From Escherichia coli (GTDB lineage Bacteria > Pseudomonadota > Gammaproteobacteria > Enterobacterales > Enterobacteriaceae), in the NCBI RefSeq assembly GCF_003334315.1, contig NZ_QOWR01000009.1: a stretch of DNA of 64,000 nt. One strand, given 5' to 3'. Of the stretch, positions 2,597 through 42,135 are shown one piece after another. Within the stretch, counting starts at the first letter, position 1. Each line of letters starts with the position of its first letter. The translations under genes were made by a program, and so were the position numbers. The notes below the pieces were generated by a model. It was not told the origin of the DNA, did no database searches, and saw nothing but the letters and a program-made list of their open reading frames with translations.

Positions 2597-4630
2597 ATGA
2601 CTCAAGTCGCGAAGAAAATTCTGGTGACGTGCGCACTGCCGTACGCTAACGGCTCAATCCACCTCGGCCATATGCTGGAGCACATCCAGGCTGATGTCTG
2701 GGTCCGTTACCAGCGAATGCGCGGCCACGAGGTCAACTTCATCTGCGCCGACGATGCCCACGGTACACCGATCATGCTGAAAGCTCAGCAGCTTGGTATC
2801 ACCCCGGAGCAGATGATTGGCGAAATGAGTCAGGAGCATCAGACTGATTTCGCAGGCTTTAACATCAGCTATGACAACTATCACTCGACGCACAGCGAAG
2901 AGAACCGCCAGTTGTCAGAACTTATCTACTCTCGCCTGAAAGAGAACGGTTTTATTAAAAACCGCACCATCTCTCAGCTGTACGATCCGGAAAAAGGCAT
3001 GTTCCTGCCGGACCGTTTTGTGAAAGGCACCTGCCCGAAATGTAAATCCCCGGATCAATACGGCGATAACTGCGAAGTCTGCGGCGCGACCTACAGCCCG
3101 ACTGAATTGATCGAGCCGAAATCGGTGGTTTCTGGCGCTACGCCGGTAATGCGTGATTCTGAACACTTCTTCTTTGATCTGCCCTCTTTCAGCGAAATGT
3201 TGCAGGCATGGACCCGCAGCGGTGCGTTGCAGGAGCAGGTGGCAAATAAAATGCAGGAGTGGTTTGAATCCGGCCTGCAACAGTGGGATATCTCCCGCGA
3301 CGCGCCATACTTTGGTTTTGAAATTCCGAACGCGCCGGGCAAATATTTCTACGTCTGGCTGGACGCACCGATTGGCTACATGGGTTCTTTCAAGAATCTG
3401 TGCGACAAGCGCGGCGACAGCGTAAGCTTCGATGAATACTGGAAGAAAGACTCCACCGCCGAACTGTACCACTTCATCGGTAAAGATATCGTTTACTTCC
3501 ACAGCCTGTTCTGGCCTGCCATGCTGGAAGGCAGCAACTTCCGCAAGCCGACCAACCTGTTTGTTCATGGCTATGTGACGGTGAACGGCGCGAAGATGTC
3601 CAAGTCTCGCGGCACCTTTATTAAAGCCAGCACCTGGCTGAATCATTTTGACGCTGACAGCCTGCGTTACTACTACACTGCGAAACTCTCTTCGCGCATT
3701 GATGATATCGATCTCAACCTGGAGGATTTCGTTCAGCGCGTGAATGCCGATATCGTTAACAAAGTGGTTAACCTGGCCTCCCGTAACGCGGGCTTTATCA
3801 ACAAACGTTTTGACGGCGTGCTGGCAAACGAACTGGCTGACCCGCAGTTGTACAAAACCTTCACTGATGCCGCTGAAGTGATTGGTGAAGCGTGGGAAAG
3901 CCGTGAATTTGGTAAAGCTGTGCGCGAAATCATGGCGCTGGCTGATCTGGCTAACCGCTATGTCGATGAACAGGCTCCGTGGGTAGTCGCAAAACAGGAA
4001 GGTCGCGATGCTGACCTGCAGGCGATTTGCTCAATGGGCATCAACCTGTTCCGCGTGCTGATGACTTACCTGAAGCCGGTACTGCCGAAACTGACCGAGC
4101 GTGCAGAAGCCTTCCTCAATACGGAACTGACCTGGGATGGTATCCAGCAACCGCTGCTGGGCCACAAAGTGAATCCGTTCAAGGCGCTGTATAACCGCAT
4201 CGATATGAAACAGGTTGAAGCTCTGGTGGAAGCCTCTAAAGAAGAAGTGAAAGCAGCTGCCGCGCCAGTTACTGGCCCACTGGCAGATGATCCGATTCAG
4301 GAAACCATCACCTTTGACGACTTCGCCAAAGTTGACCTGCGCGTAGCGCTGATCGAAAACGCAGAGTTTGTTGAAGGTTCTGACAAACTGCTGCGCCTGA
4401 CACTGGATCTCGGCGGTGAAAAACGCAATGTCTTCTCCGGTATTCGTTCTGCCTACCCGGATCCGCAGGCACTGATTGGTCGTCACACCATTATGGTGGC
4501 TAACCTGGCACCACGTAAAATGCGCTTTGGAATCTCCGAAGGCATGGTGATGGCTGCCGGTCCAGGCGGGAAAGATATCTTCCTGCTAAGCCCGGATGCT
4601 GGTGCTAAACCGGGTCATCAGGTGAAATAA
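2597..4630 (+). CDS. metG: Methionyl-tRNA synthetase (677 aa)
   Basis: ORF 2588..4630 trimmed to [29 protein letters not shown] (HIGH-type motif HLGH), KMSKS motif present (AKMSKSRG). Confidence 0.97.
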
Positions 4631-4770: not shown

Positions 4771-7700
4771 ATGAGACACTTTATCTATCAGGACGAAAAA
4801 TCACATAAATTCTGGGCGGTGGAGCAACAGGGAAACGAGTTGCATATCAGTTGGGGAAAAGTTGGCACCAAAGGGCAAAGTCAGATAAAAAGTTTTTCAG
4901 ATGCTGCGGCAGCGGAAAAAGCGGAACTTAAGCTGATTGCGGAGAAGGTGAAGAAGGGGTATGTGGAGCAAGCGAAGGATAATTCTTTGCAACCTTCCCA
5001 AACGGTAACGGGCTCTCTCAAGGTAGCGGACTTATCCACCATTATTCAGGAACAACCCTCTTTCGTAGCAGAAACCCGTGCGCCTGACAAAAATACAGAT
5101 GCTGTTTTACCGTGGCTGGCGAAAGATATTGCTGTCGTTTTTCCGCCCGAAGTTGTACACACCACGTTAAGTCATCGCCGCTTTCCCGGAGTTCCTGTTC
5201 AGCAAGCAGACAAATTGACCCAATTACGTCGCTTAGCCTGTAGTGTGTCGCAACGGGATAATAAAACAGCCACATTTGACTTCAGCGCCTGTTCTTTAGA
5301 ATGGCAAAACACCGTCGCCCAGGCGATCAGTCAGATCGACGGCCTGAAAACAACACAGTTACCATCACCAGTAATGGCTGTACTCACGGCACTTGAAATG
5401 AAATGCACAAGATATAAAGTGCGTGAGGATGTTATGGATCAGATCGTCCAGGAAGGCGGTCTGGAATATGCTACTGATGTAATAATACACCTTCAACAGA
5501 TTGATATTGAATGGGATTATGCGAATAATGTCATTATTATTCTGCCGTCTGGCATTGCACCTAGCTACTTGGAGCAATATTCCAGATTTGAATTACGCCT
5601 ACGTAAACATTTATCACTGACGGAAGAGTCTCTCTGGCAAAAATGTGCACAAAAACTTATTGCCGCAATTCCACATATTCCAGAATGGCGGCAACCATTA
5701 ATTGCTTTGTTATTACCCGAAAAACCAGAAATTGCACATGAAATTGCCCAGCGTCTACTGGGGCAAAAAAAATTACCCTCGCTTGAGTGGTTAAAAATAG
5801 TGGCGACTGATGAGCACATTCTTGCCTCATTAGAAAAATATCACGAACCATATGCCATTTTTGATGATTACTATTGTGGTGCGATATGGTCAGCCACCGT
5901 ATTACAGGAGCAAGGTGTTGCAGCCCTGCCCCGATTTGCTCCCTATGCCGCAAGTGACTACTGCGCCGATGTGTTGCGTCATATCAATCATCCGTTCGCA
6001 TTGACACTGCTTATACGTGTAGCCGGGCAAACTAAACGCTGTCACGATCGGATGACGAAAGCCATTGCTGCGTTCCCACATGCAGCAATGGCGGCACTGA
6101 CGGAACTTCTTGGGCAAAAAGAAGAGAACAGTTGGCGCATTATGCTAATGACAATGCTTATCTCACAACCAGCACTGGCAGAACAGGTCATTCCCTGGCT
6201 CTCGACACCCGCAGTTGCCGTACTGAAATCATGCCAGCAACAACTGACACAGCCCTCAAACCATGCCAGCGCCGATCTACTGCCAGCCGTAGTAGTCTCC
6301 CCTCCCTGGCTTTCGAAAAAGAAAAAATCGCCGATTCCGGTGCTGGATTTAGCGCCATTAGGCATTGAGCCAATCTGTTATCTGACAGAAGAAATCAGTA
6401 ATCAACTTTTGGCGAAATATATCTGGTATTCAAAACACATCACGGTTAGCCATGAAGAAAGTACTACCAACCTGTTGGCAAGGATGGGTTTTCAACGACG
6501 GATCGCTGGTACATATATTAAAGCTCCCGAAGCGGTAGTTGAGGCATGGCTAAATGAAGATTATTCAACCTTACTAAGTGAATTTAAGGTGTTTCATTCA
6601 CCTACCGGGCATTATTGGCAGTTGGGGATTTTGACAACATTGCCGCTGGAGAAAGCAGTAAAAGCATGGAATGCCCTTACCCTATCTCCACATACCGATA
6701 CCGAATACTCCATGTTACATTTTGGACTCAAAGGGTTACCTGGGTTAGTAAACTCACTTGCACGCTATCCACAAGAAGCCTTGCCCATCACGAATTACTT
6801 CGCAGCGAGTGAGCTGGCTCCTGCCGTCGCCCGTGCCTTCAACAAACTGAAAACGCTACGCGAAAACGCCCGTAGCTGGCTGTTGAAATACCCGGAACAT
6901 GCCCTTACCGGCCTGCTGCCTGCGGCGCTCGGCAAAGCCGGTGAAGCACAGGATAACGCCCGCGCTGCCTTGCGTATGCTTACCGAAAACGGTCATCAGC
7001 CATTACTGCAAGAAATCGCCCGACGTTATAACCAGCCGGAAGTAACCGATGCGGTGAACGCTCTGCTTGCGCTCGATCCCTTAGATAATCACCCGACAAA
7101 AATCCCCACTCTTCCGGCCTTTTATCAGCCATCGCTCTGGACGCGCCCGGTATTAAAAGCAAATGCCCAATCACTGCCAGATAGCGCCCTCCTCCACCTC
7201 GGTGAAATGCTCCGCTTCCCTCAGGAAGAGGCTCTGTATCCGGGATTATTGCAGGTGAAAGACGTCTGTTCCGCCGACTCACTGGCGGGATTTGCCTGGG
7301 ATCTGTTTACCGCCTGGCAGACCGCTGGCGCGCCGTCGAAAGAGAGTTGGGCGTTCACTGCGTTAGGCGTTCTCGGTAACGATGACACCGCCCGCAAACT
7401 GACGCCATTAATACGCGCCTGGCCTGGTGAATCCCAGCATAAACGCGCCACCGTTGGGTTGGATATTCTCGCTGCTATCGGTAGTGATATCGCCCTTATG
7501 CAGCTTAACGGCATCGCCCAGAAACTGAAATTCAAAGCATTACAGGAGCGGGCAAAAGAAAAAATTGCCGACATTGCCGAGAGCCGCGAACTCACGGTGG
7601 CGGAGCTTGAAGATCGGTTAGCACCGGATCTCGGTCTGGATGATAACGGTTCGCTGCTGCTGGATTTTGGCCCACGGCAGTTCACCGTCAGCTTTGATGA

Positions 7701-8565
7701 AACCTTAAAACCGTTTGTGCGTGATGTTTCCGGCAGCCGCCTGAAGGACCTGCCCAAACCGAACAAAAGCGATGATGAAACGCGGGCGAACGATGCGGTT
7801 AACCGCTACAAATTGCTGAAAAAAGATGCGCGTACCATCGCCGCCCAGCAGGTAGCAAGGCTGGAATCCGCCATGTGCCTGCGCCGCCGCTGGTCGCTGG
7901 AAAACTTCCAGCTCTTCCTGGTTGAGCATCCGCTGGTTCGTCACTTAACCCGCCGTCTGATTTGGGGCGTTTATAGCGCCGAAAACCAGCTACTGGCTTG
8001 CTTTCGCGTAGCAGAAGATAACAGCTCCAGCACCGCTGACGATGATCTTTTCACCCTGCCGGAAGGCGATATCTCTATCGGCACTCCTCACGTTCTGGAA
8101 ATATCACCAACGGATGCTGCCGCCTTTGGTCAGCTTTTTGCCGACTACGAACTGCTACCACCGTTCCGCCAGCTCGACCGTAACAGCTACGCCCTGACAG
8201 AAGCCGAGCGCAATGCCAGTGAACTGACCCGCTGGGCAGGCAGAAAATGCCCGAGTGGTCGGGTCATGGGGCTGGCGAATAAAGGCTGGATAAAGGGCGA
8301 ACCACAGGATGGAGGCTGGATCGGATGGATGATCAAACCTTTGGGTCGCTGGTCGTTAATCATGGAAATCGATGAAGGCTTTGCGGTAGGCATGTCGCCA
8401 GCCGAACTCAGCGCTGAGCAGCTCTTAAGCAAGCTGTGGCTATGGGAAGGCAAAGCAGAAAGATATGGCTGGGGGAGTAATTCAACACAGGAAGCGCAGT
8501 TCTCCGTAATCGATGCCATCACCGCCAGCGAGCTAATTAACGATATTGAAGCCCTGTTTGAATAA
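4771..8565 (+). CDS. yehH: Large MolR-like protein with N-terminal WGR domain (1264 aa), intact
   Basis: Single uninterrupted ORF; N-terminus MRHFIYQDEKSHKFWAVEQQGNELHISWGKVGTKGQ shows the W-G-K/R signature of WGR domains; remainder paralogous to downstream YehI. Confidence 0.85.
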   Translation: MRHFIYQDEKSHKFWAVEQQGNELHISWGKVGTKGQSQIKSFSDAAAAEKAELKLIAEKVKKGYVEQAKDNSLQPSQTVTGSLKVADLSTIIQEQPSFVAETRAPDKNTDAVLPWLAKDIAVVFPPEVVHTTLSHRRFPGVPVQQADKLTQLRRLACSVSQRDNKTATFDFSACSLEWQNTVAQAISQIDGLKTTQLPSPVMAVLTALEMKCTRYKVREDVMDQIVQEGGLEYATDVIIHLQQIDIEWDYANNVIIILPSGIAPSYLEQYSRFELRLRKHLSLTEESLWQKCAQKLIAAIPHIPEWRQPLIALLLPEKPEIAHEIAQRLLGQKKLPSLEWLKIVATDEHILASLEKYHEPYAIFDDYYCGAIWSATVLQEQGVAALPRFAPYAASDYCADVLRHINHPFALTLLIRVAGQTKRCHDRMTKAIAAFPHAAMAALTELLGQKEENSWRIMLMTMLISQPALAEQVIPWLSTPAVAVLKSCQQQLTQPSNHASADLLPAVVVSPPWLSKKKKSPIPVLDLAPLGIEPICYLTEEISNQLLAKYIWYSKHITVSHEESTTNLLARMGFQRRIAGTYIKAPEAVVEAWLNEDYSTLLSEFKVFHSPTGHYWQLGILTTLPLEKAVKAWNALTLSPHTDTEYSMLHFGLKGLPGLVNSLARYPQEALPITNYFAASELAPAVARAFNKLKTLRENARSWLLKYPEHALTGLLPAALGKAGEAQDNARAALRMLTENGHQPLLQEIARRYNQPEVTDAVNALLALDPLDNHPTKIPTLPAFYQPSLWTRPVLKANAQSLPDSALLHLGEMLRFPQEEALYPGLLQVKDVCSADSLAGFAWDLFTAWQTAGAPSKESWAFTALGVLGNDDTARKLTPLIRAWPGESQHKRATVGLDILAAIGSDIALMQLNGIAQKLKFKALQERAKEKIADIAESRELTVAELEDRLAPDLGLDDNGSLLLDFGPRQFTVSFDETLKPFVRDVSGSRLKDLPKPNKSDDETRANDAVNRYKLLKKDARTIAAQQVARLESAMCLRRRWSLENFQLFLVEHPLVRHLTRRLIWGVYSAENQLLACFRVAEDNSSSTADDDLFTLPEGDISIGTPHVLEISPTDAAAFGQLFADYELLPPFRQLDRNSYALTEAERNASELTRWAGRKCPSGRVMGLANKGWIKGEPQDGGWIGWMIKPLGRWSLIMEIDEGFAVGMSPAELSAEQLLSKLWLWEGKAERYGWGSNSTQEAQFSVIDAITASELINDIEALFE

Positions 8566-8574
8566 GGAAAGAGC

Positions 8575-11500
8575 ATGGACAAGGAATTACCGTGGCTGGC
8601 GGATAACGCCCAACTGGAACTGAAATATAAAAAAGGCAAAACGCCGCTCAGTCATCGTCGCTGGCCGGGCGAACCAGTGTCCGTTATCACTGGAAGTCTC
8701 ATCCAGACATTGGGTGATGAATTGCTACAAAAAGCTGAGAAGAAAAAAAACATTGTCTGGCGTTATGAGAATTTTTCACTGGAGTGGCAGTCCGCCATCA
8801 CGCAGGCCATCAACTTGATCGGCGAACACAAACCCTCAATCCCGGACCGGACAATGGCGGCGCTAGCCTGTATCGCGCAAAATGACAGCCAACAGTTGCT
8901 CGACGAAATCGTCCAACAAGAGGGGCTGGAATATGCGACTGAGGTGGTGATTGCACGCCAGTTTATTGCGCGGTGTTATGAGAGTGATCCTCTGGTAGTG
9001 ACATTGCAGTATCAGGACGAGGATTATGGCTATGGTTATCGCTCAGAAACCTATAACGAATTCGATCTCCGACTGCGTAAGCATCTCTCTCTGGCAGAGG
9101 AAAGCTGCTGGCAGCGTTGCGCCGACAAACTCATTGCCGCACTACCAGGAATAACCAAAGTTCGCCGCCCTTTTATTGCGCTGATCCTCCCGGAAAAACC
9201 AGAAATAGCCAATGAGTTGGTAGGCCTTGAATGCCCGCGAACTCATTTTCATTCTAAGGAGTGGTTAAAAGTTGTTGCTAATGACCCCACAGCGGTGAGA
9301 AAACTCGAACACTACTGGAGCCAGGATATATTTAGCGATCGAGAAGCCAGCTACATGTCGCATGAAAACCACTTCGGCTACGCGGCCTGCGCCGCCCTTT
9401 TGCGCGAACAAGGACTGGCAGCCATTCCGCGCCTCGCGATGTATGCCCATAAAGAAGATTGCGGCAGTCTGCTGGTACAAATTAACCATCCGCAAGTCAT
9501 CCGCACCTTGCTACTGGTGGCTGATAAAAACAAACCCAGCCTGCAACGTGTAGCTAAATACCATAAAAACTTCCCCCATGCGACGCTCGCCGCACTGGCA
9601 GAACTGCTGGCGTTAACAGAACCACCAGCCCGCCCTGGTTATCCAATCATCGAAGACAAAAAGCTGCCTGCACAGCAAAAAGCACGCGATGAATACTGGC
9701 GTACGCTGTTACAAACGCTGATGGCATCGCAGCCACAACTGGCAGCAGAAGTGATGCCGTGGTTAAGTACTCAACCCCAGTCAGTGCTGAAGAGTTATTT
9801 ATCGGCACCGCCCAAACCGGTTATTGATGGCACCGATAACAGCAATCTGCCAGAAATCCTCGTTTCACCACCGTGGCGTAGTAAGAAAAAAATGACAGCT
9901 CCACGTCTTGATTTGGCACCGCTCGAATTAACTCCGCAAGTTTACTGGCAACCAGGCGAACAAGAGAGGCTTGCCGCCACTGAGCCTGCCCGTTATTTCA
10001 GCACGGAATCTCTTGCGCAACGCATGGAACAAAAAAGTGGACGAGTTGTATTACAGGAACTGGGTTTTGGGGATGATGTATGGCTGTTTCTGAATTATAT
10101 ACTCCCCGGAAAACTGGATGCTGCACGCAATTCACTCTTTGTTCAGTGGCATTACTACCAGGGGCGGGTTGAAGAGATCCTGAATGGCTGGAACTCCCCG
10201 GAAGCACAATTAGCAGAACAGGCGCTCCGCAGCGGTCACATAGAAGCGTTAATTAACATATGGGAAAATGACAACTACTCACATTATCGTCCGGAAAAGA
10301 GTGTCTGGAACCTGTATTTATTGGCACAGTTGCCGCGTGAGATGGCTTTGACCTTCTGGCTGCGTATCAATGAGAAAAAGCATCTGTTCGCGGGTGAGGA
10401 CTATTTTCTCAGTATCCTCGGATTGGATGCGCTACCAGGTCTGCTGTTGGCTTTTTCACATCGTCCAAAAGAAACATTTCCGTTAATTTTAAATTTTGGC
10501 GCAACAGAACTGGCGCTGCCTGTTGCCCACGTCTGGCGACGTTTCGCGGCGCAGCGTGATCTGGCTCGCCAGTGGATTTTACAATGGCCGGAACATACGG
10601 CTAGTGCACTTATCCCTCTTGTCTTTACCAAACCCAGCGATAATAGCGAAGCCGCATTACTTGCCCTGCGTTTACTGTACGAACAGGGACATGGCGAATT
10701 GCTACAAACCGTGGCAAACCGCTGGCAGCGTACAGATGTATGGTCTGCCCTGGAGCAGTTGCTTAAACAGGGTCCAATGGACATTTACCCGGCACGCATT
10801 CCAAAAGCCCCTGATTTCTGGCATCCGCAAATGTGGTCCAGGCCGCGCCTTATCACTAATAATCAAACTGTTACCAATGACGCTCTGGAAATTATCGGCG
10901 AAATGCTGCGCTTTACCCAGGGGGGACGTTTTTATAGCGGGCTGGAACAACTGAAAACGTTCTGCCAGCCACAAACGCTGACAGCTTTTGCCTGGGATCT
11001 CTTCACTGCGTGGCAACAAGCTGGTGCCCCCGCAAAAGACAACTGGGCATTTCTGGCGTTAAGTCTCTTTGGTGACGAAAGCACGGCACGGGATCTGACG
11101 ACACAGATCCTCGCCTGGCCACAAGAAGGCAAATCTGCCCGTGCTGTCAGCGGCCTGAACATCCTTACCCTGATGAATAATGATATGGCGCTGATACAGC
11201 TGCATCATATATCGCAACGGGCTAAATCCCGCCCCTTACGTGATAACGCGGCGGAATTTCTTCAGGTGGTCGCAGAAAATCGCGGGCTAAGCCAGGAAGA
11301 GCTAGCGGACAGATTAGTCCCAACCCTGGGCCTTGATGATCCGCAGGCGTTGAGTTTTGATTTTGGTCCCCGGCAGTTTACCGTTCGCTTCGATGAAAAT
11401 CTCAACCCGGTTATCTTTGATCAGCAAAACGTTCGCCAGAAAAGCGTTCCCCGTTTGCGCGCCGATGACGATCAACTGAAAGCGCCCGAGGCACTGGCCC

Positions 11501-12207
11501 GACTAAAAGGGCTAAAAAAAGATGCTACTCAGGTGAGCAAAAACCTGCTCCCGCGTCTTGAAACGGCCCTACGTACCACCCGACGCTGGTCGCTGGCAGA
11601 TTTTCATTCTCTGTTTGTTAATCATCCCTTTACCCGTCTGGTTACCCAGCGATTAATATGGGGGGTTTATCCGGCAAATGAACCGCGTTGTTTACTCAAA
11701 GCCTTTCGTGTGGCCGCAGAGGGGGAGTTCTGCAATGCGCAAGATGAGCCAATTGACCTGCCTGCGGACGCTCTGATTGGCATTGCCCACCCGTTAGAAA
11801 TGACAGCAGAAATGCGCAGTGAATTTGCACAGCTTTTTGCCGATTACGAAATTATGCCGCCTTTTCGCCAGTTGTCGCGCCGCACGGTGCTGCTCACACC
11901 TGACGAGTCAACCAGTAACAGCCTGACTCGCTGGGAAGGTAAATCCGCTACCGTTGGGCAACTTATGGGAATGCGATACAAAGGCTGGGAGTCAGGCTAT
12001 GAGGACGCATTTGTCTATAACCTGGGTGAGTACCGGCTGGTCCTTAAGTTTTCACCCGGTTTTAACCACTACAATGTTGATAGCAAAGCGCTAATGAGCT
12101 TCCGTTCTCTTCGAGTGTACCGTGACAATAAATCCGTCACTTTTGCCGAACTTGATGTGTTTGATTTGAGTGAGGCGTTAAGCGCACCTGACGTCATTTT
12201 CCATTAA
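8575..12207 (+). CDS. yehI: Large uncharacterised protein YehI (1210 aa), paralogue of YehH lacking the WGR N-terminus
   Basis: ORF 8575..12207, 1210 aa; extensive colinear similarity with YehH (e.g. DLRLRKHLSLAEES..., SPPWRSKKK, FAWDLFTAWQQAGAP, FDFGPRQFTV, FAQLFADYEIMPPFRQL). Confidence 0.85.
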   Translation: MDKELPWLADNAQLELKYKKGKTPLSHRRWPGEPVSVITGSLIQTLGDELLQKAEKKKNIVWRYENFSLEWQSAITQAINLIGEHKPSIPDRTMAALACIAQNDSQQLLDEIVQQEGLEYATEVVIARQFIARCYESDPLVVTLQYQDEDYGYGYRSETYNEFDLRLRKHLSLAEESCWQRCADKLIAALPGITKVRRPFIALILPEKPEIANELVGLECPRTHFHSKEWLKVVANDPTAVRKLEHYWSQDIFSDREASYMSHENHFGYAACAALLREQGLAAIPRLAMYAHKEDCGSLLVQINHPQVIRTLLLVADKNKPSLQRVAKYHKNFPHATLAALAELLALTEPPARPGYPIIEDKKLPAQQKARDEYWRTLLQTLMASQPQLAAEVMPWLSTQPQSVLKSYLSAPPKPVIDGTDNSNLPEILVSPPWRSKKKMTAPRLDLAPLELTPQVYWQPGEQERLAATEPARYFSTESLAQRMEQKSGRVVLQELGFGDDVWLFLNYILPGKLDAARNSLFVQWHYYQGRVEEILNGWNSPEAQLAEQALRSGHIEALINIWENDNYSHYRPEKSVWNLYLLAQLPREMALTFWLRINEKKHLFAGEDYFLSILGLDALPGLLLAFSHRPKETFPLILNFGATELALPVAHVWRRFAAQRDLARQWILQWPEHTASALIPLVFTKPSDNSEAALLALRLLYEQGHGELLQTVANRWQRTDVWSALEQLLKQGPMDIYPARIPKAPDFWHPQMWSRPRLITNNQTVTNDALEIIGEMLRFTQGGRFYSGLEQLKTFCQPQTLTAFAWDLFTAWQQAGAPAKDNWAFLALSLFGDESTARDLTTQILAWPQEGKSARAVSGLNILTLMNNDMALIQLHHISQRAKSRPLRDNAAEFLQVVAENRGLSQEELADRLVPTLGLDDPQALSFDFGPRQFTVRFDENLNPVIFDQQNVRQKSVPRLRADDDQLKAPEALARLKGLKKDATQVSKNLLPRLETALRTTRRWSLADFHSLFVNHPFTRLVTQRLIWGVYPANEPRCLLKAFRVAAEGEFCNAQDEPIDLPADALIGIAHPLEMTAEMRSEFAQLFADYEIMPPFRQLSRRTVLLTPDESTSNSLTRWEGKSATVGQLMGMRYKGWESGYEDAFVYNLGEYRLVLKFSPGFNHYNVDSKALMSFRSLRVYRDNKSVTFAELDVFDLSEALSAPDVIFH

Positions 12208-12267
12208 AACACAGCGGGCAGTGATGCAACTGCCCGTTATCAACACGACTTACCAGCGGGGAAAGCG

Positions 12268-12585
12268 ATGATCGTGCAAAAAGAGCTGGTTGCTATTTAC
12301 GATTATGAGGTCCCTGTACCTGAAGATCCGTTTTCCTTCAGACTTGAGATCCATAAATGCTCTGAATTATTTACAGGTTCCGTCTATCGACTGGAGCGAT
12401 TCCGGCTACGTCCAACATTTCATCAACGTGATCGAGAAGATGCTGACCCGCTAATAAATGATGCGTTGATTTATATAAGAGATGAGTGTATTGATGAGCG
12501 GAAATTACGAGGTGAATCACCTGAAACTGTAATAGCAATTTTTAATCGTGAACTACAGAATATATTCAACCAAGAAATAGAATAA
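12268..12585 (+). CDS. yehK: Small uncharacterised protein YehK (105 aa)
   Basis: ORF 12268..12585 preceded by RBS-like gggaaagcg; AT-richer than flanking genes. Confidence 0.65.
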   Translation: MIVQKELVAIYDYEVPVPEDPFSFRLEIHKCSELFTGSVYRLERFRLRPTFHQRDREDADPLINDALIYIRDECIDERKLRGESPETVIAIFNRELQNIFNQEIE

Positions 12586-12662
12586 TATACTCTAAATAAT
12601 TCAAATTGGTCCGATCCGGCGCACCGTCCCAATGGCCTGGATTATAAATCTCATTATCTTAA

Positions 12663-12691
12663 TTGCAACGGGGTCCAGCCGTGGTTATAAT
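12663..12691 (+). promoter_or_regulatory. Near-consensus sigma70-type promoter (TTGCAA - 17 bp - TATAAT)
   Basis: -35 ttgcaa 12663-12668, 17-bp spacer, perfect -10 tataat 12686-12691. Confidence 0.4.
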
Positions 12692-12756
12692 TCGTTCGTT
12701 GGAACACGATGTTGCACAGGCTGTGGTGTTAGGCCTGAAAATAGTAAATAAAAGAA

Positions 12757-12781
12757 CCTGCCTCACCAGCAGGTTTTTTTA
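12757..12781 (+). terminator. Intrinsic terminator in yehK-yehL intergenic region
   Basis: Stem cctgc / gcagg with loop ctcacca (12757-12773) followed by 8 T (12774-12781). Confidence 0.5.
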
Positions 12782-12891
12782 TTTACTGTGATCTGCTTTC
12801 CAGATATTTTTCGCTCAAACAACTAATGCGCCAAACATTTATTGCGCGTAAAATATCGTTTATTTCATTAATACATTTCAGGGATGAATAT

Positions 12892-13979
12892 ATGTCACCG
12901 CAGAATAATCATCTGCAGCGTCCGCCTGCTGCTGTGTTATACGCCGATGAACTGGCAAAATTAAAACAAAATGATAACGCACCTTGCCCGCCCGGTTGGC
13001 AGTTAAGTTTGCCTGCGGCCCGTGCTTTTATCCTTGGCGACGAAGCGCAAAATATCAGCCGTAAAGTGGTGATTAGCCCCTCCGCTGTCGAACGTATGTT
13101 AGTCACTCTTGCTACCGGCCGCGGTTTGATGTTGGTGGGGGAACCGGGTACCGCAAAATCTCTTCTTTCTGAATTACTGGCAACCGCTATTAGCGGCGAT
13201 GCCGGGTTAACCATCCAGGGCGGGGCATCTACCACCGAAGATCAAATCAAGTATGGCTGGAACTACGCCCTGCTTATCAATCATGGTCCGTCAACGGAAG
13301 CGCTGGTCCCTGCCCCGCTTTATCAGGGAATGCGCGACGGCAAAATCGTCCGTTTCGAAGAGATAACGCGTACACCGCTGGAAGTGCAGGACTGTCTGTT
13401 AGGTATGCTTTCTGACAGGGTGATGACGGTGCCGGAACTCACTGGTGAAGCCAGTCAGCTCTATGCGCGAGAAGGCTTTAATATTATTGCCACTGCCAAT
13501 ACCCGCGATCGCGGCGTCAATGAAATGAGTGCTGCGCTAAAGCGTCGCTTCGATTTTGAAACGGTTTTTCCGATTATGGATTTCGCCCAGGAGTTGGAAC
13601 TGGTCGCCAGTGCTTCGGCGCGTTTGCTGGCCCATAGCGGTATTCCGCATAAAGTGCCTGACGCGGTACTGGAATTACTGGTCCGCACCTTCCGCGATCT
13701 GCGTGCCAACGGCGAAAAGAAAACGTCAATGGATACACTGACAGCGATTATGTCCACCGCTGAAGCCGTGAACGTGCCCATGCTGTGGGCGTCCGCGCCT
13801 GGTTTTTAGCGAATCGCGCGGGGGAGCCTGCCGACCTGGTGGAATGTATTGCCGGAACCATCGTCAAAGATAACGAAGAAGATCGCGCGCGTCTGCGCCG
13901 TTACTTCGAACAGCGTGTCGCCACACATAAAGAAGCTCACTGGCAGGCTTATTATCAAGCCCGCCACCGCCTGCCGTGA
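12892..13979 (+). pseudogene. yehL: MoxR-type AAA+ ATPase YehL, disrupted by apparent 1-nt deletion (frame A ends at TAG 13807-13809; remainder continues in -1 frame to 13979)
   Basis: ORF 12826..13809 trimmed to MSPQNNH at 12892; Walker A LVGEPGTAKS (~13138-13161). The -1 frame is open from 13764 to TGA 13977-13979; joined length equals 362 codons, matching my recollection of K-12 YehL. T5 run at 13803-13807 is the likely indel site. Confidence 0.6.
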
Positions 13980-13989
13980 GGAAAGATGC

Positions 13990-16269
13990 ATGAGCGAGCC
14001 GTTAATTGTCGGCATCCGGCATCATAGTCCGGCCTGCGCCCGGCTGGTGAAATCGTTAATCGAAAGCCAGCGGCCACGATACGTGTTGATTGAAGGCCCG
14101 GCTGATTTTAATGACCGGGTAGACGAACTGTTTTTAGCCCACCAGCTTCCGGTAGCTATTTACAGTTATTGCCAGTATCAGGACGGTGCAGCCCCCGGGC
14201 GTGGTGCCTGGACGCCATTTGCTGAATTTTCGCCGGAGTGGCAGGCGCTACAAGCCGCACGTCGCATTCAGGCACAAACTTACTTCATCGATTTGCCTTG
14301 CTGGGCGCAGAGTGAAGAAGAGGACGATTCGCCTGATACGCAAGATGAAAGCCAGGCCTTACTGCTGCGTGCCACCCGCATGGATAACAGCGATACCCTG
14401 TGGGATCACTTGTTCGAAGATGAAAGCCAGCAAACTGCATTACCCTCTGCGCTGGCGCACTATTTTGCCCAACTGCGGGGCGACGCCTCCGGCGATGCGC
14501 TCAATCGTCAGCGCGAAGCCTTTATGGCCCGCTGGATTGGATGGGCGATGCAGCAAAATAATGGCGACGTGTTAGTTGTCTGCGGTGGCTGGCACGCTCC
14601 GGCACTGGCAAAGATGTGGCGCGAATGCCCTCAGAAAATTAACAAGCCAGAATTGCCCTCGCTGGCAGATGCCGTTACAGGTTGTTATCTCACACCCTAC
14701 AGTGAAAAGCGCCTTGATGTGCTGGCAGGATACCTTTCAGGAATGCCTGCCCCGGTATGGCAAAACTGGTGCTGGCAGTGGGGCTTGCAGAAGGCCGGTG
14801 AACAACTGCTAAAAACTATCCTTACCCGTTTGCGCCAGCACAAATTGCCCGCTTCTACCGCGGATATGGCTGCCGCTCATCTGCATGCGATGGCGCTGGC
14901 ACAGTTGCGCGGTCATACACTACCGTTACGCACTGACTGGCTGGATGCCATAGCAGGCTCGCTGATTAAAGAAGCCCTGAACGCGCCGTTGCCGTGGAGC
15001 TATCGCGGCGTTATTCATCCCGATACCGATCCGATTCTGCTAACGTTGATAGACACATTAGCGGGTGACGGATTCGGTAAACTTGCCCCTTCTACGCCAC
15101 AACCGCCTCTGCCAAAAGATGTCACCTGCGAACTGGAACGTACCGCAATCTCCCTTCCGGCGGAGCTTACCTTAAATCGCTTTACCCCCGATGGGCTGGC
15201 GCAAAGTCAGGTGTTACATCGGCTGGCAATACTGGAGATCCCTGGGATTGTACGCCAGCAGGGAAGTACACTGACACTTGCAGGCAACGGTGAAGAACGC
15301 TGGAAATTAACCCGCCCGCTTAGCCAGCATGCGGCATTGATTGAGGCCGCCTGTTTTGGTGCCACACTCTAGGAAGCCGCACGCAATAAATTAGAAGCCG
15401 ATATGCTGGACGCGGGCGGAATCGGCAGTATCACCACATGTCTTAGCCAGGAGGCGTTAGCGGGTCTGGCGTCCTTCAGTCAACAATTACTGGAGCAACT
15501 CACACTATTAATCGCCCAGGAAAATCAATTTGCCGAAATGGGCCAGGCGCTGGAAGTGCTTTATGCCTTATGGCGGCTGGATGAAATTAGCGGTATGCAA
15601 GGCGCGCAGATATTACAAACGACGTTATGCGCGACTATCGATCGCACGCTGTGGCTGTGTGAATCTAACGGCAGACCGGATGAAAAGGAGTTTCACGCTC
15701 ACCTGCATAGCTGGCAAGCGCTTTGCCATATTCTGCGCGATCTACATAGCGGCGTTAATTTACCCGGCGTTTCTCTTTCTGCGGCGGTAGCCTTACTGGA
15801 GCGACGCAGTCAGGCAATTCATGCCCCGGCGCTGGATCGCGGCGCGGCTCTTGGCGCACTAATGCGTCTGGAACATCCCAACGCCAGTGCCGAAGCGGCG
15901 CTGACGATGCTGGCGCAGTTATCCCCGGCACAATCTGGTGAGGCGCTGCACGGTTTGCTGGCGCTGGCCCGCCATCAACTGGCCTGTCAGCCGGCATTTA
16001 TCGCCGGTTTCAGCAGTCATTTAAATCAACTGAGTGAAGCCGATTTTATTAACGCCCTGCCCGATTTACGCGCGGCGATGGCCTGGCTACCACCACGAGA
16101 ACGCGGGACGCTGGCGCATCAGGTGCTTGAGCATTATCAACTGGCGCAACTTCCCGTTTCGGCGCTGCAAATGCCGTTGCATTGTCCACCACAGGCCATT
16201 GCACATCATCAACAACTCGAACAGCAGGCACTGGCATCGCTGCAAAACTGGGGAGTTTTCCATGTCTGA
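13990..16269 (+). pseudogene. yehM: Large uncharacterised protein YehM with in-frame amber codon (TAG 15370-15372); two ORF halves 13990..15372 and 15373..16269 in the same frame
   Basis: ORFs 13849..15372 and 15403..16269 are in the same reading frame separated only by TAG; read-through length 759 codons equals my recollection of K-12 YehM. Start at MSEPLIVGIRHHSP (13990). Confidence 0.6.
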
Positions 16270-17398
16270 ACTGAACGATCTTCTGACCACCCGTGAGCTA
16301 CAACGCTGGCGATTAATTCTTGGCGAAGCGGCAGAAACGACGCTTTGTGGGCTGGATGACAACGCCCGGCAGATAGACCACGCGCTGGAGTGGCTGTATG
16401 GGCGCGATCCTGAACGGCTCCAGCGTGGTGAACGTTCCGGTGGATTAGGTGGCTCAAATCTCACCACCCCTGAGTGGATCAACAGTATTCACACGCTGTT
16501 TCCGCAGCAGGTGATTGAGCGGCTGGAAAGCGATGCCGTGCTGCGCTACGGCATTGAAGATGTGGTGACGAATCTCGACGTGCTGGAACGTATGCAGCCT
16601 TCTGAAAGCCTGCTACGCGCTGTTTTGCACACCAAACATCTGATGAACCCCGAAGTACTGGCTGCCGCCCGCCGGATAGTGTGCCAGGTTGTTGAAGAAA
16701 TTATGGCTCGACTGGCAAAGGAAGTTCGTCAGGCTTTTTCTGGTGTCCGCGATCGCCGTCGCCGTTCATTTATTCCACTGGCGCGAAACTTTGATTTCAA
16801 AAGTACTCTGCGCGCCAACCTGCAACACTGGCACCCGCAACACGGCAAGTTGTATATCGAATCCCCCCGCTTTAACAGCCGCATTAAACGCCAAAGCGAA
16901 CAATGGCAACTGGTCTTACTGGTTGATCAAAGCGGATCGATGGTCGATTCGGTGATCCACTCTGCGGTGATGGCGGCCTGTTTGTGGCAGTTACCCGGCA
17001 TTCGTACCCATCTGGTGGCGTTTGACACAAGCGTCGTTGATCTCACGGCAGACGTTGCCGATCCGGTAGAGTTATTAATGAAAGTACAGTTGGGCGGCGG
17101 GACCAATATCGCCAGTGCCGTGGAGTATGGTCGGCAACTTATTGAACAACCAGCGAAAAGCGTCATTATCCTCGTGAGCGATTTTTACGAAGGGGGTTCA
17201 TCATCATTACTGACGCATCAGGTGAAAAAGTGTGTCCAGAGCGGCATCAAAGTGCTGGGACTGGCAGCGCTCGATAGCACCGCAACACCTTGCTATGACC
17301 GCGATACGGCCCAGGCGCTGGTTAATGTCGGCGCACAAATAGCCGCCATGACGCCGGGCGAGCTGGCATCATGGCTTGCGGAGAATCTTCAGTCATGA
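16262..17398 (+). CDS. yehP: von Willebrand factor A (vWA) domain protein YehP (378 aa)
   Basis: ORF trimmed to MSELNDLLTTRELQRW at 16262 (ATG 8 nt upstream of the yehM stop); MIDAS-like motif DQSGS (~16925-16939). Confidence 0.88.
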   Translation: MSELNDLLTTRELQRWRLILGEAAETTLCGLDDNARQIDHALEWLYGRDPERLQRGERSGGLGGSNLTTPEWINSIHTLFPQQVIERLESDAVLRYGIEDVVTNLDVLERMQPSESLLRAVLHTKHLMNPEVLAAARRIVCQVVEEIMARLAKEVRQAFSGVRDRRRRSFIPLARNFDFKSTLRANLQHWHPQHGKLYIESPRFNSRIKRQSEQWQLVLLVDQSGSMVDSVIHSAVMAACLWQLPGIRTHLVAFDTSVVDLTADVADPVELLMKVQLGGGTNIASAVEYGRQLIEQPAKSVIILVSDFYEGGSSSLLTHQVKKCVQSGIKVLGLAALDSTATPCYDRDTAQALVNVGAQIAAMTPGELASWLAENLQS

Positions 17399-19395
17399 AT
17401 TCACTACGTCCGGAATTATTAGAACTGACACCGCAGGCCCTGACGGCGTTAAGCAATGCCGGTTTTGTTAAGCGCAGTCTTAAGGAACTGGAAAATGGCA
17501 ACGTCCCGGAGATCAGCCATGAGAACGACGCTTTAATCGCCACCTTCAGTGACGGTGTCCGTACCCAGCTGGCGAACGGCCAGGCACTGAAAGAGGCTCA
17601 GTGCAGTTGCGGGGCCAACGGTATGTGCCGTCATCGCGTGATGCTGGTGTTAAGTTATCAACGACTTTGTGCCACCACTCAGTCTACGGAAAAAGAAGAA
17701 GAGTGGGATCCGGCAATCTGGCTGGAAGAACTGGCTACCCTTCCCGATGCTACCCGCAAACGCGCACAGGCGCTGGTCGCTAAAGGCATCACCATTGAGT
17801 TGTTCTGTGCGCCGGGTGAAATTCCCTCTGCCCGCTTACCGATGAGCGATGTGCGTTTTTATTCCCGCAGCAGTATTCGTTTCGCCCGTTGTGATTGTAT
17901 TGAAGGCACACTTTGCGAACATGTCGTACTGGCGGTACAGGCCTTCGTCGAGGCCAAAGCGCAGCAAGCAGAATTTAACCATTTAATCTGGCAGATGCGC
18001 AGCGAACACGTCACATCATCTGACGATCCGTTTGCCAGCGAAGAAGGCAACGCGTGTCGTCAATATGTTCAGCAATTAAGCCAGACATTATGGCTTGGCG
18101 GCATCAGCCAGCCGCTCATCCATTACGAGGCAGCATTCAACCGCGCATTGCAGGCGGCAGAGACCTGCAACTGGCGCTGGGTGAGTGAATCGCTACGGCA
18201 ACTGCGCGCCAGCGTTGATGCCTTCCACGCCCGCGCCAGCCACTATAATGCCGGAGAATGCTTACATCAGCTTGCGGCATTAAACAGTCGATTAAATTGC
18301 GCACAAGAGATGGCCCGGCGCGACAGTATTGGTGAAGTTCCTCCTGTGCCGTGGCGCACGGTCGTTGGCTCTGGCATTGCCGGAGAAGCAAAGCTTGATC
18401 ATCTGCGGCTGGTGTCTTTAGGTATGCGTTGCTGGCAGGATATTGAGCATTATGGTTTACGCATCTGGTTTACCGATCCCGACACCGGCAGTATTTTGCA
18501 CCTTTCGCGCAGTTGGCCGCGAAGTGAACAGGAAAACTCACCGGCAGCTACGCGTCGGCTGTTTAGTTTTCAGGCTGGCGCACTGGCGGGCGGGCAAATT
18601 GTTTCACAAGCAGCAAAACGCAGTGCCGATGGCGAGCTGCTGTTAGCTACCCGCAACCGCTTAAGCAGCGTTGTGCCGCTGTCGCCTGATGCCTGGCAAA
18701 TGTTGAGCGCGCCGTTACGCCAGCCGGGCATTGTGGCTTTGCGGGAATATTTACGCCAGCGTCCCCCCGCCTGCATACGGCCTCTTAATCAGGTCGATAA
18801 CTTATTTATTCTGCCGGTCGCTGAGTGTATTTCGCTCGGTTGGGACAGCAGCCGCCAGACGCTGGATGCGCAGGTCATTAGCGGCGAAGGGGAAGATAAT
18901 GTGCTGACGTTATCATTACCAGCCTCAGCCAGCGCACCTTATGCCGTTGAACGCATGGCGGTGCTTTTGCAACAAACAGACGACCCCGTGTGTCTGGTTT
19001 CTGGCTTTGTCAGTTTTGTTGAAGGGCAATTGACACTGGAACCACGGGTGATGATGACAAAAACCCGTGCCTGGGCGCTGGACGCAGAAACTACGCCTGT
19101 GGCACCGCTACCTTCTGCCAGCGTTTTGCCTGTGCCGTCTACTGCTCATCAGTTGCTGATACGCTGCCAGGCGTTACTTATTCAACTGCTCCATAACGGC
19201 TGGCGCTATCAGGAACAGAGTGCTATTGGTCAGGCAGAGTTGCTGGCGAATGACCTCACCGCGGTGGGTTTTTATCGGCTGGCACATGTGTTGGGACAAT
19301 TTCGTAATACAGAAAGCGAGGCACGGGTAGAAGCAATGAATAACGGTGTTTTGCTTTGCGAACAATTATTCCCCATGCTTCAGCAACAAGGATGA
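17395..19395 (+). CDS. yehQ: SWIM zinc-finger protein YehQ
   Basis: ORF trimmed to MNSLRPELLEL at 17395 (ATGA overlap with yehP stop); two CxCx5CxH motifs: CSCGANGMCRH and CDCIEGTLCEH. Confidence 0.85.
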   Translation: MNSLRPELLELTPQALTALSNAGFVKRSLKELENGNVPEISHENDALIATFSDGVRTQLANGQALKEAQCSCGANGMCRHRVMLVLSYQRLCATTQSTEKEEEWDPAIWLEELATLPDATRKRAQALVAKGITIELFCAPGEIPSARLPMSDVRFYSRSSIRFARCDCIEGTLCEHVVLAVQAFVEAKAQQAEFNHLIWQMRSEHVTSSDDPFASEEGNACRQYVQQLSQTLWLGGISQPLIHYEAAFNRALQAAETCNWRWVSESLRQLRASVDAFHARASHYNAGECLHQLAALNSRLNCAQEMARRDSIGEVPPVPWRTVVGSGIAGEAKLDHLRLVSLGMRCWQDIEHYGLRIWFTDPDTGSILHLSRSWPRSEQENSPAATRRLFSFQAGALAGGQIVSQAAKRSADGELLLATRNRLSSVVPLSPDAWQMLSAPLRQPGIVALREYLRQRPPACIRPLNQVDNLFILPVAECISLGWDSSRQTLDAQVISGEGEDNVLTLSLPASASAPYAVERMAVLLQQTDDPVCLVSGFVSFVEGQLTLEPRVMMTKTRAWALDAETTPVAPLPSASVLPVPSTAHQLLIRCQALLIQLLHNGWRYQEQSAIGQAELLANDLTAVGFYRLAHVLGQFRNTESEARVEAMNNGVLLCEQLFPMLQQQG

Positions 19396-37277: not shown

Positions 37278-37361
37278 ATGAAAATTATACTCTGGGCTGT
37301 ATTGATTATTTTCCTGATTGGGCTACTGGTGGTGACTGGCGTATTTAAGATGATATTTTAA
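37278..37361 (+). CDS. yohP: Small membrane protein YohP (27 aa)
   Basis: RBS aaggaacgcc then ATG; MKIILWAVLIIFLIGLLVVTGVFKMIF; too short for ORF track. Confidence 0.55.
   Translation: MKIILWAVLIIFLIGLLVVTGVFKMIF

Positions 37362-40139: not shown

Positions 40140-42135
<1,996 letters not shown>

Follow-up and report, generated by a model that had tools for sequence, protein, structure and literature searches.

What does yehK do, and does it belong with the genes that surround it? This question is raised by a 64,000 nt stretch of the Escherichia coli chromosome (from contig NZ_QOWR01000009.1; hereafter the window), which extends from yehE through rihB. The 105-codon coding sequence of yehK is at 12,268 to 12,585 on the + strand, between yehI, encoding a DUF4132 protein, and yehL, encoding a MoxR-type AAA_5 ATPase. 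The protein sequence is that of RefSeq WP_000636925.1, 'protein YehK' (100% identity). An earlier reading made from the sequence alone (the sequence-only reading) saw here a small acidic protein that might be an adaptor, immunity protein or regulator of a neighbouring system, and took its composition as a possible mark of independent acquisition. The distant homologues of YehK suggest another association. It is very probable that YehK belongs to an immunity-type family linked to toxin tips, and reasonably likely that it is itself an orphan Rhs-type immunity protein against a Cys-rich tip. The chances that the E. coli protein still works as immunity seem about even.

Homologues of YehK and the genes beside them

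No match to YehK was found in Pfam, NCBIfam, the PDB sequences (searched with phmmer) or PADLOC, and Pfam has none for any of the 32 family members used below. A word-indexed homologue search with YehK returned Escherichia and Shigella proteins only. This suggested a genus-restricted orphan gene, an explanation that was overturned by an exhaustive profile search. The profile was built from 14 Escherichia sequences and gave, among 1.84 billion representative proteins, 52 matches, approximately 35 of them full-length (100 to 134 amino acids (aa)), from unrelated sources and with E values of 7e-29 to 1e-3; two repeat-protein artefacts were dropped from these matches. The family is marked by the motifs FxFRLE[IV], [VI][YF]RxExYR[LI]xPTFPQ and DDALxYVxD, and E. 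coli YehK retains all seven of the nearly invariant positions (R25, E27, R46, P49, F51, D65, and D72). Among the non-Escherichia loci whose context was looked up, the closest relative is encoded at the locus designated L049, a 103 aa protein with 45% identity to the E. coli sequence (BLASTP E 2e-32).

Homology to the members linked to Rhs genes is independent of the diverse family alignment, since the Escherichia-only profile matches them on its own. In hhalign comparisons with this profile, the match probability was 98.6% for P0086 (E 8e-16) and 95.9% for P0122 (E 6e-9), and P0086 was also matched at E 1.4e-9 in the search against the 1.84 billion proteins. In another member, P0139, the C-terminal part is YehK-like and is fused to a fragment of RHS repeats. 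Tandem YehK-like duplications, with two domains in 210 to 260 aa, are present in P0080, P0114, P0115 (L017, 10,001 to 10,675), P0117, P0125, and P0134.

Structure prediction, one of the checks proposed with the sequence-only reading, gave a confident fold. With a shallow alignment of Escherichia sequences alone the AlphaFold2 (AF2) model had a pLDDT of 40, and with the diverse 32-sequence alignment this rose to 91, with a pTM of 0.80. The predicted fold has four antiparallel beta-strands (residues 6-15, 22-31, 34-47, and 64-71) and a C-terminal helix (85-100). No significant match to the model was found among solved structures. In AFDB50 its matches, with E values of 5e-5 to 2e-3, were confined to small uncharacterised proteins, some of which carry the label DUF5064, DUF3081 or WYL. 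No relative of YehK was present among the IMG/VR viral contigs scanned, and so there is no sign there of a phage origin for yehK.

The neighbourhoods of the relatives are where the association with Rhs is seen. A Rhs gene is upstream, on the same strand, in six of the nine non-Escherichia loci reached from YehK homologues, and in three of these (L012, L013, and L049) the homologue comes directly after the Rhs/tip gene. L012 contains the end of a Rhs gene (core motif ...RIDPEGL) and a Cys-rich tip upstream of the homologue. At L013/L014, a 1746 aa RHS/YD-shell protein ends 14 nt before it. The order in L049 is VgrG (TIGR03361, 596 bits), a full PAAR-Rhs protein (a match to the NF041261 'RHS element core protein' equivalog at 2022 bits), the 100 aa immunity gene of that Rhs, a 344 aa orphan Rhs C-terminal fragment, and then the 103 aa YehK homologue. 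In the remaining three loci, where there is a longer gap or small genes intervene, the Rhs protein is of 3009 aa (L017, where the homologue is a tandem double), 1613 aa (L015/L016, followed by a 209 aa open reading frame (ORF)) or 1679 aa (L018, where the homologue is one of an array of small genes that follow).

Three of these loci, and two others, share the same tip. This Cys-rich sequence of approximately 60 residues precedes a YehK-family gene in five loci, being fused to Rhs in L012, L013, L049, and L053 and stand-alone in L052. Its motif is C-x2-S-C-N-[VI] ... A-C-x2-A-K-R-x-A-T-Q-x-A-P-x-G-x-Y-x-R-H-C-x-C-x-C. The tips of L012, L013, and L049 are one and the same domain (alignment A6), with C-T-A-S-C-N-V ... 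G ... G ... E-A-C-x2-A-K-R-x-A-T-Q-S-A-P-R-G-x-Y-x-R-H-C-Q-C-S-C. The tip is at 9790-9997 in L049, 40-414 in L012, approximately 9780-9986 in L013, approximately 6000-6201 in L053, and 6001-6273 in L052, and proteins P0176-P0201 carry it as well. The L017 tip has weak similarity to it (probability 62%), and those of L015 and L018 are different.

The association holds when approached from the tip. A search with the tip found 26 small proteins, several of them stand-alone with clear Sec signal peptides, and in both of the tip-bearing loci examined that had not been found through YehK a YehK-family gene is immediately downstream. In L052, the stand-alone secreted tip is followed after 9 nt by a 107 aa ORF without a signal peptide, which hhalign aligns to the YehK family at a probability of 99% (E 2e-18). 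In L053, on a plasmid of Candidatus Thiodictyon syntrophicum, Rhs with its tip is followed after 8 nt by a 116 aa ORF (hhalign probability 97%, E 1.6e-11). The L053 island also holds a gene annotated as a 'MafI family immunity protein'. The tip and the YehK-family gene are linked whichever of the two the search starts from, and on more than one delivery scaffold, which is the mark of a polymorphic toxin/immunity pair. The Cys-rich tip is probably a new toxin domain and, as judged by sequence comparison, the YehK family and its partner tip of approximately 60 aa are two protein families absent from Pfam and NCBIfam.

The Rhs setting also has a bearing on base composition. Rhs genes are classically described as having a GC-rich core and an AT-rich extension. 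In all five of the Rhs loci measured, the GC of the YehK-like gene is below that of the Rhs core and below that of the whole locus: 0.28 against a core of 0.60 in L049, 0.45 against 0.62 in L013, 0.51 against 0.66 in L017, 0.42 against 0.51 in L015, and 0.47 against 0.61 in L018. The full Rhs of L049 has its own tip and immunity gene at a GC of 0.38 to 0.39. These values fit the contrast known to exist between the cores of Rhs genes and their tips and downstream modules; GC peaks have been used to delimit dissociated Rhs tips (Jackson et al., PMC2935791). Low GC is therefore shared by the YehK family and the Rhs tip/immunity modules, and was inherited with the family rather than marking a recent transfer.

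The gene, the cluster and the islet in Escherichia

The statement that yehK is AT-richer than its neighbours was confirmed. Its GC is 0.387, compared to 0.508 for yehI, 0.502 for yehH, 0.542 for yehL, 0.556 for yehM, 0.544 for yehP, and 0.543 for yehQ; the per-gene mean of the window is 0.514 (sd 0.044). At third codon positions (GC3) it is 0.283, the lowest among 51 genes of the window (z = -4.0), with the six cluster neighbours at 0.50 to 0.57. In total GC yehK ranks second lowest in the window, after the 84 nt yohP, and none of 1,401 sliding 318 nt coding windows taken from the other genes of the window is as AT-rich. The codon-usage index (leave-one-out) is also lowest for yehK among 47 genes, at 0.514 against a mean of 0.691 (z = -3.8), so that by the GC and codon-usage calculation proposed earlier the gene is clearly distinguishable from its neighbours. 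The description of the product as a small acidic protein of 105 codons was likewise correct: YehK has a pI of 4.8, with 22 D/E and 14 K/R residues, is hydrophilic (GRAVY -0.48), and has no signal peptide.

Other small genes in the window are low in GC too (0.35 to 0.44), these being yehR (19,520 to 19,981), yehE (812 to 1093), yeiS (41,896 to 42,135), and yohP (37,278 to 37,361). None of the other small genes is as low in GC3 as yehK, and in the window small accessory genes are generally AT-richer than long housekeeping genes.

The GC of yehK is 0.38 to 0.40 in E. coli, E. albertii, E. marmotae, and a further lineage at 68% identity. Since it is low in every Escherichia species examined, the shift in composition is real but old. 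A recent horizontal transfer of yehK was considered and rejected, the low GC being common to all of the Escherichia species and a trait of the family.

It is clear that yehK is a real coding gene. The ratio of non-synonymous to synonymous change (dN/dS) is 0.16 to 0.22 at dS of 0.6 to 1.4 for all interspecies pairs among E. coli, E. albertii, E. marmotae, and the lineage at 68% protein identity. The GC of the three codon positions is 0.575, 0.302, and 0.283, a periodicity of the coding type. An ORF of at least 95 aa is present at yehK in 24 of 28 metagenomic Escherichia loci, and the yehK region was found in 5,189 of 5,426 complete E. coli genomes. The C-terminal end is variable, and truncated or frameshifted copies exist in a few lineages (P0031; L041 to L043, 96 aa; L048, 39 aa; P0060; and P0062). 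A search of the literature on yehK found no expression data and, within the library searched, no paper tying YehK to Rhs or to any function. A single nucleotide polymorphism (SNP) has been reported in the yehK/yehL intergenic region (PMC6881287).

The yehI-yehK spacer is 60 nt and the yehK-yehL spacer 306 nt. A putative Shine-Dalgarno-like sequence, GGGGAAAG (12,258 to 12,265, + strand), can be read a few bases 5' of the yehK ATG. The yehI-yehK spacer also contains a G+C-rich 8 bp hairpin, CGGGCAGT / ACTGCCCG (12,215 to 12,236), with a terminator-like score on the minus strand only; nothing on that strand is obviously in need of termination.

The surrounding cluster consists of yehH (DUF4132, 4771 to 8565), yehI (+ strand, 8575 to 12,207, with its stop at 12,207, and having neither Rhs repeats nor a toxin tip), yehL (+ strand, 12,892 to 13,979), yehM (DUF5682, 13,990 to 16,269), yehP (vWA, 16,262 to 17,398), and yehQ (SWIM, 17,395 to 19,395). 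A WGR domain is also present in the E. albertii paralogue that corresponds to yehH. None of the seven Yeh proteins (YehH, YehI, YehK, YehL, YehM, YehP, and YehQ) had a match in PADLOC-DB v2 (E <= 0.01), so that the neighbours are at most a putative defence system. Using tblastn with YehM, a five-gene cluster of the DUF4132, AAA_5, DUF5682, vWA, and SWIM types was found on plasmids outside the class and outside the phylum. In plasmid NZ_CP107758.1 of Streptomyces sp. NBC_00597 (L051, 4194 to 15,070), the order is DUF4132, AAA, DUF5682, vWA, and a gene in the SWIM position, with the stop of the DUF4132 gene overlapping the AAA start. In plasmid NZ_CP016451.1 of Sinorhizobium sp. RAC02 (L050, 7872 to 18,360), it is AAA, DUF5682, DUF4132, vWA, and SWIM. 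Neither cluster includes a YehK-like gene. From these comparisons, yehHI and yehLMPQ are one ancestral five-gene cluster, split in Escherichia by the AT-rich islet. On the plasmids of Actinomycetota and Alphaproteobacteria, the five genes form a tight operon.

In the strain of the window, yehL is frameshifted by a 1 nt deletion at approximately 13,775 and yehM has a CAG-to-TAG change at codon 461 (15,370 to 15,372), while yehH and yehQ are intact. K-12-like strains are the opposite, with yehH frameshifted and an internal stop in yehQ. These opposite patterns of inactivation indicate that different lineages lose different genes of the cluster, with yehK remaining intact.

The islet itself is at approximately 12,260 to 12,890. 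The composition profile and per-gene GC define it as a tract of approximately 39% GC between yehI and yehL, which extends past the yehK ORF across the yehK-yehL spacer (GC 0.389) and contains yehK and a remnant of zor-orz. The remnant includes an orphan orzP antitoxin small RNA (sRNA) gene (12,705 to 12,780, + strand), matched over its full length by Rfam RF02083 (99.9 bits, E 7.5e-16) and located outside the yehK ORF. Divergent promoters are present at 12,641 to 12,691, that for orzP being TTGCAA-17-TATAAT (+ strand, 12,663 to 12,691) and that for the zorP remnant being on the - strand (12,668 to 12,641). The distance from yehI to yehL is 684 bp in the window, and O157-type strains have up to 1,238 bp between yehK and yehL alone. 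Relative to the spacer of the O157 type, the sequence at 3507 to 4433 of L002 (zorO, orzO, and zorP) is missing here, with a deletion junction at approximately 12,600 to 12,604. This orz-only state has already been published as OrzPmg (PMC11264685).

In E. albertii, the order is three DUF4132 paralogues, yehK, a 29 aa zor gene, and yehL. The same gene order in this species implies that the islet predates the divergence of the genus Escherichia, and the comparison supports an insertion of yehK and zor-orz into an otherwise contiguous cluster before Escherichia diversified. The three DUF4132 paralogues upstream of yehK in E. albertii (L005, 1 to 7941) and E. marmotae (L009, 1 to 7948) compare with two in the window. 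In E. marmotae the gene in the yehI position is split in two by the gene call and the middle paralogue, at 1010 aa, is shorter; both may be disrupted.

At the other end of the window, a sugar kinase gene (59,995 to 61,083) is 80.5% identical, with indels, to its counterpart in NZ_CP062855.1, a strain with 100% identity over the yehK region, and nupX (61,190 to 62,440) shows 94.9% identity. Of the 51 genes compared, the majority are at 96 to 100% (yehQ 95.7%). It seems, then, that the sugar kinase/nupX end carries a divergent or recombined allele.

Explanations for the retention of yehK

If YehK is an orphan immunity protein, the following sequence of events is proposed. In other bacteria, members of the family are small cytoplasmic proteins encoded directly after a Cys-rich tip, which is either the C-terminus of a Rhs protein linked to a type VI secretion system (T6SS) or a stand-alone protein with a Sec signal peptide. 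By analogy with all characterised Rhs toxin/RhsI pairs, a family member would block its toxin tip by binding to it one-to-one in the cytoplasm. Escherichia lacks the toxin partner, and the immunity-type gene alone has been kept intact under purifying selection, most likely for protection against a tip delivered by competitors. The composition of yehK, its coding status, the homology, the gene order around the relatives, and the lack of YehK in Yeh-type clusters elsewhere are observations; from these we infer that the tip is toxic, that family members neutralise it, and that YehK of E. coli has retained this ability. The purifying selection acting on yehK over the long term speaks for a gene still in use. 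Orphan immunity against the Rhs toxins of other strains is established, having been shown for a Rhs NADase in Serratia (PMC10539506). The label 'orphan' is used because no Rhs fragment or tip was found in the window, where tblastn with the Cys-rich tip and the orphan Rhs fragment of L049 gave noise only (E >= 0.6), and because a DNA search of the E. coli genomes detected no L049-type tip or immunity sequence.

Several points weigh against this explanation. There is no cognate toxin upstream of the E. coli gene, where yehI is found instead, and a DNA-level search of the 5,426 E. coli genomes did not detect the tip or the L049-type pair, so that the threat has not been found within the species itself. 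Unusually for an orphan immunity gene, yehK lies outside any rhs locus or immunity array. The specificity of immunity is usually narrow and E. coli YehK is only 24 to 45% identical to the Rhs-linked members; the recognition of any existing toxin may have been lost. The tip has no match in Pfam, NCBIfam or PDB. The sample of neighbourhoods is small, with 11 non-Escherichia loci, mostly metagenomic contigs, nine found via YehK and two via the tip. No Rhs was seen at L010, L011 (both contigs of 2 kb or less) or L019; the homologue has a DUF4265 gene upstream in L011 and follows a CCA-adding enzyme gene in L019. Finally, yehK and yehI evolve at the same rate (E. coli versus E. albertii dN 0.154 and 0.153, dS 0.936 and 0.928, respectively), which would also fit a link to YehI.

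The alternatives differ in what they leave unexplained. That the ORF is a chance open frame within an AT-rich spacer, and no gene at all, might be suggested by the lack of matches in Pfam, NCBIfam, PDB, and PADLOC, by its atypical codon usage, and by earlier work on the locus that handled it as the 'yehI-yehL intergenic region' (PMC2887945). A dN/dS well under 1, the falling GC from first to third codon positions, full-length homologues in unrelated bacteria, and a confident AF2 model from the family alignment leave this with a negligible likelihood, and the selection, the distant homologues, and the model effectively refute it. A decaying relic of a former immunity gene, with no current function and persisting through shortness of time or by hitch-hiking, has more in its favour. 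It would fit the missing cognate toxin, both in the window and, at the DNA level, in E. coli genomes, as well as the variable C-terminal end, the few truncated and frameshifted copies, and the decay of the surrounding cluster in several lineages. It is nonetheless unlikely, as the dN/dS values at such divergence reflect purifying selection over a long time, stop codons would have arisen in a neutral 105-codon ORF with 28% GC3, all of the family-invariant residues are kept, and most copies are intact.

Two further explanations turn to the neighbours in Escherichia. The principal one is that YehK is an accessory subunit (adaptor, regulator or inhibitor) of a system made up of YehH/YehI and YehLMPQ, perhaps with a recruited immunity-type fold. 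The same-strand site between yehI and yehL does not vary among E. coli, E. albertii, E. marmotae, and the lineage at 68% identity, the spacer after yehI is only 60 nt, and the dN and dS of yehK are near-identical to those of yehI, unlike those of the slow yehL and yehP, which are far more constrained (dN/dS 0.02 to 0.06). However, the cluster on the Streptomyces and Sinorhizobium plasmids is without YehK, with the DUF4132 gene overlapping the AAA gene in Streptomyces; the 11 non-Escherichia loci of the family include none with a DUF4132, AAA_5, DUF5682 or vWA neighbour; and yehK is intact where cluster genes are pseudogenes, be these yehL and yehM here or yehH and yehQ in K-12-like strains. 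Such a role is therefore a little less likely than a relic. A narrower version, in which a Rhs-immunity fold fixed genus-wide was recruited as a partner of the fast-evolving YehI, for example as an inhibitor or as the sensor bait of the MoxR-vWA module, would explain the fixed site after yehI, the dN and dS matching those of yehI, and the retention far from rhs loci; it is unlikely even so. If true, an interbacterial immunity protein would have been turned into a component of a different ATPase-vWA system. The other neighbour is the zor-orz type I toxin-antitoxin locus, of which yehK might be a component. They lie side by side in each of the Escherichia species examined, have low GC in common, and are both confined at this site to Escherichia/Shigella (PMC3919570). 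Against this, zor-orz varies from an orz-only remnant to several copies while yehK is constant (PMC11264685), ZorO is a 29 aa membrane peptide under sRNA control with no need of a protein partner (PMC3919570), and no zor gene is called beside the YehK relatives in the non-Escherichia loci examined, making this very unlikely.

Membership of the zor-orz locus was in any case rejected on the protein itself, a 105 aa acidic and hydrophilic product, with the Rfam OrzO-P match falling outside its ORF. A place for yehK as a core subunit of the Yeh ATPase-vWA cluster was also rejected, given that the cluster exists elsewhere without YehK and the relatives of YehK are without cluster neighbours.

An orphan Rhs-type immunity protein remains the preferred explanation for YehK. 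For the sequence-only reading, this means that its suggestion of an immunity-type protein stands, while the system concerned would be that of Rhs toxins and not the adjacent genes, since relatives of YehK are without DUF4132 or MoxR neighbours. The comparison of distributions that it proposed did not bear out a tie between yehK and yehHI or yehLMPQ, with the cluster found in Streptomyces and Sinorhizobium without YehK. Its independent acquisition is retained insofar as yehK and zor-orz appear to be inserted in the cluster, and is altered in that the event is ancient, with the same site and GC across species, and in that low GC is a family trait.

As a result, a K-12 gene with no assigned function or domain, and with essentially no literature, gains an immunity hypothesis that can be tested. 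The islet can be read as carrying two toxin-related elements, yehK and zor-orz, and yehK should not be counted as part of the cluster. Should the E. coli protein be active, yehK would provide a case, genus-wide and in the core genome, of an acquired defence between bacteria.

Comparison with known systems

The closest likeness is to the Rhs toxin/immunity pairs. As in these, the YehK homologues are small and cytoplasmic (approximately 100 to 130 aa), are encoded on the same strand 8 to 14 nt after the tip or with a small overlap, and are lower in GC than the Rhs core; L049 has an orphan tip and immunity cassette behind a full vgrG-rhs-rhsI unit. The differences are that the YehK family has no detectable sequence relation to any named immunity family (no match in Pfam or NCBIfam), that the cognate tip is new, very small, and Cys-rich, and that in E. 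coli the gene upstream of yehK is not a Rhs gene.

In the MafB/MafI-type systems, secreted polymorphic toxins are paired with cytoplasmic immunity proteins. The arrangement in L052 is similar, with a stand-alone tip bearing a Sec signal followed by a YehK-family gene without a signal peptide. Neither the tip nor the YehK family, however, is related in sequence to MafB or MafI. The zor-orz system is likewise a small toxin-related element restricted to Escherichia/Shigella, and is the immediate neighbour of yehK in its AT-rich islet. It differs in having a 29 aa membrane toxin repressed by an sRNA, whereas YehK is a soluble acidic protein with relatives that are not linked to zor.

Orphan immunity genes such as Serratia SMDB11_2280 (PMC10539506) resemble yehK in that an immunity-type gene is kept without its toxin. 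According to the passage of PMC10539506 that cites Ross et al., the orphan immunity arrays of the Bacteroidales protect against the toxins of other strains, and a further case of orphan immunity is indicated in bioRxiv 10.1101/2025.05.03.651265. The known orphan genes are usually in arrays behind a rhs/T6SS locus or on mobile elements, and vary between strains. In contrast, yehK is a single gene, fixed genus-wide at a core-genome site inside an unrelated cluster, and by analogy with these orphan genes it may have a similar protective role.

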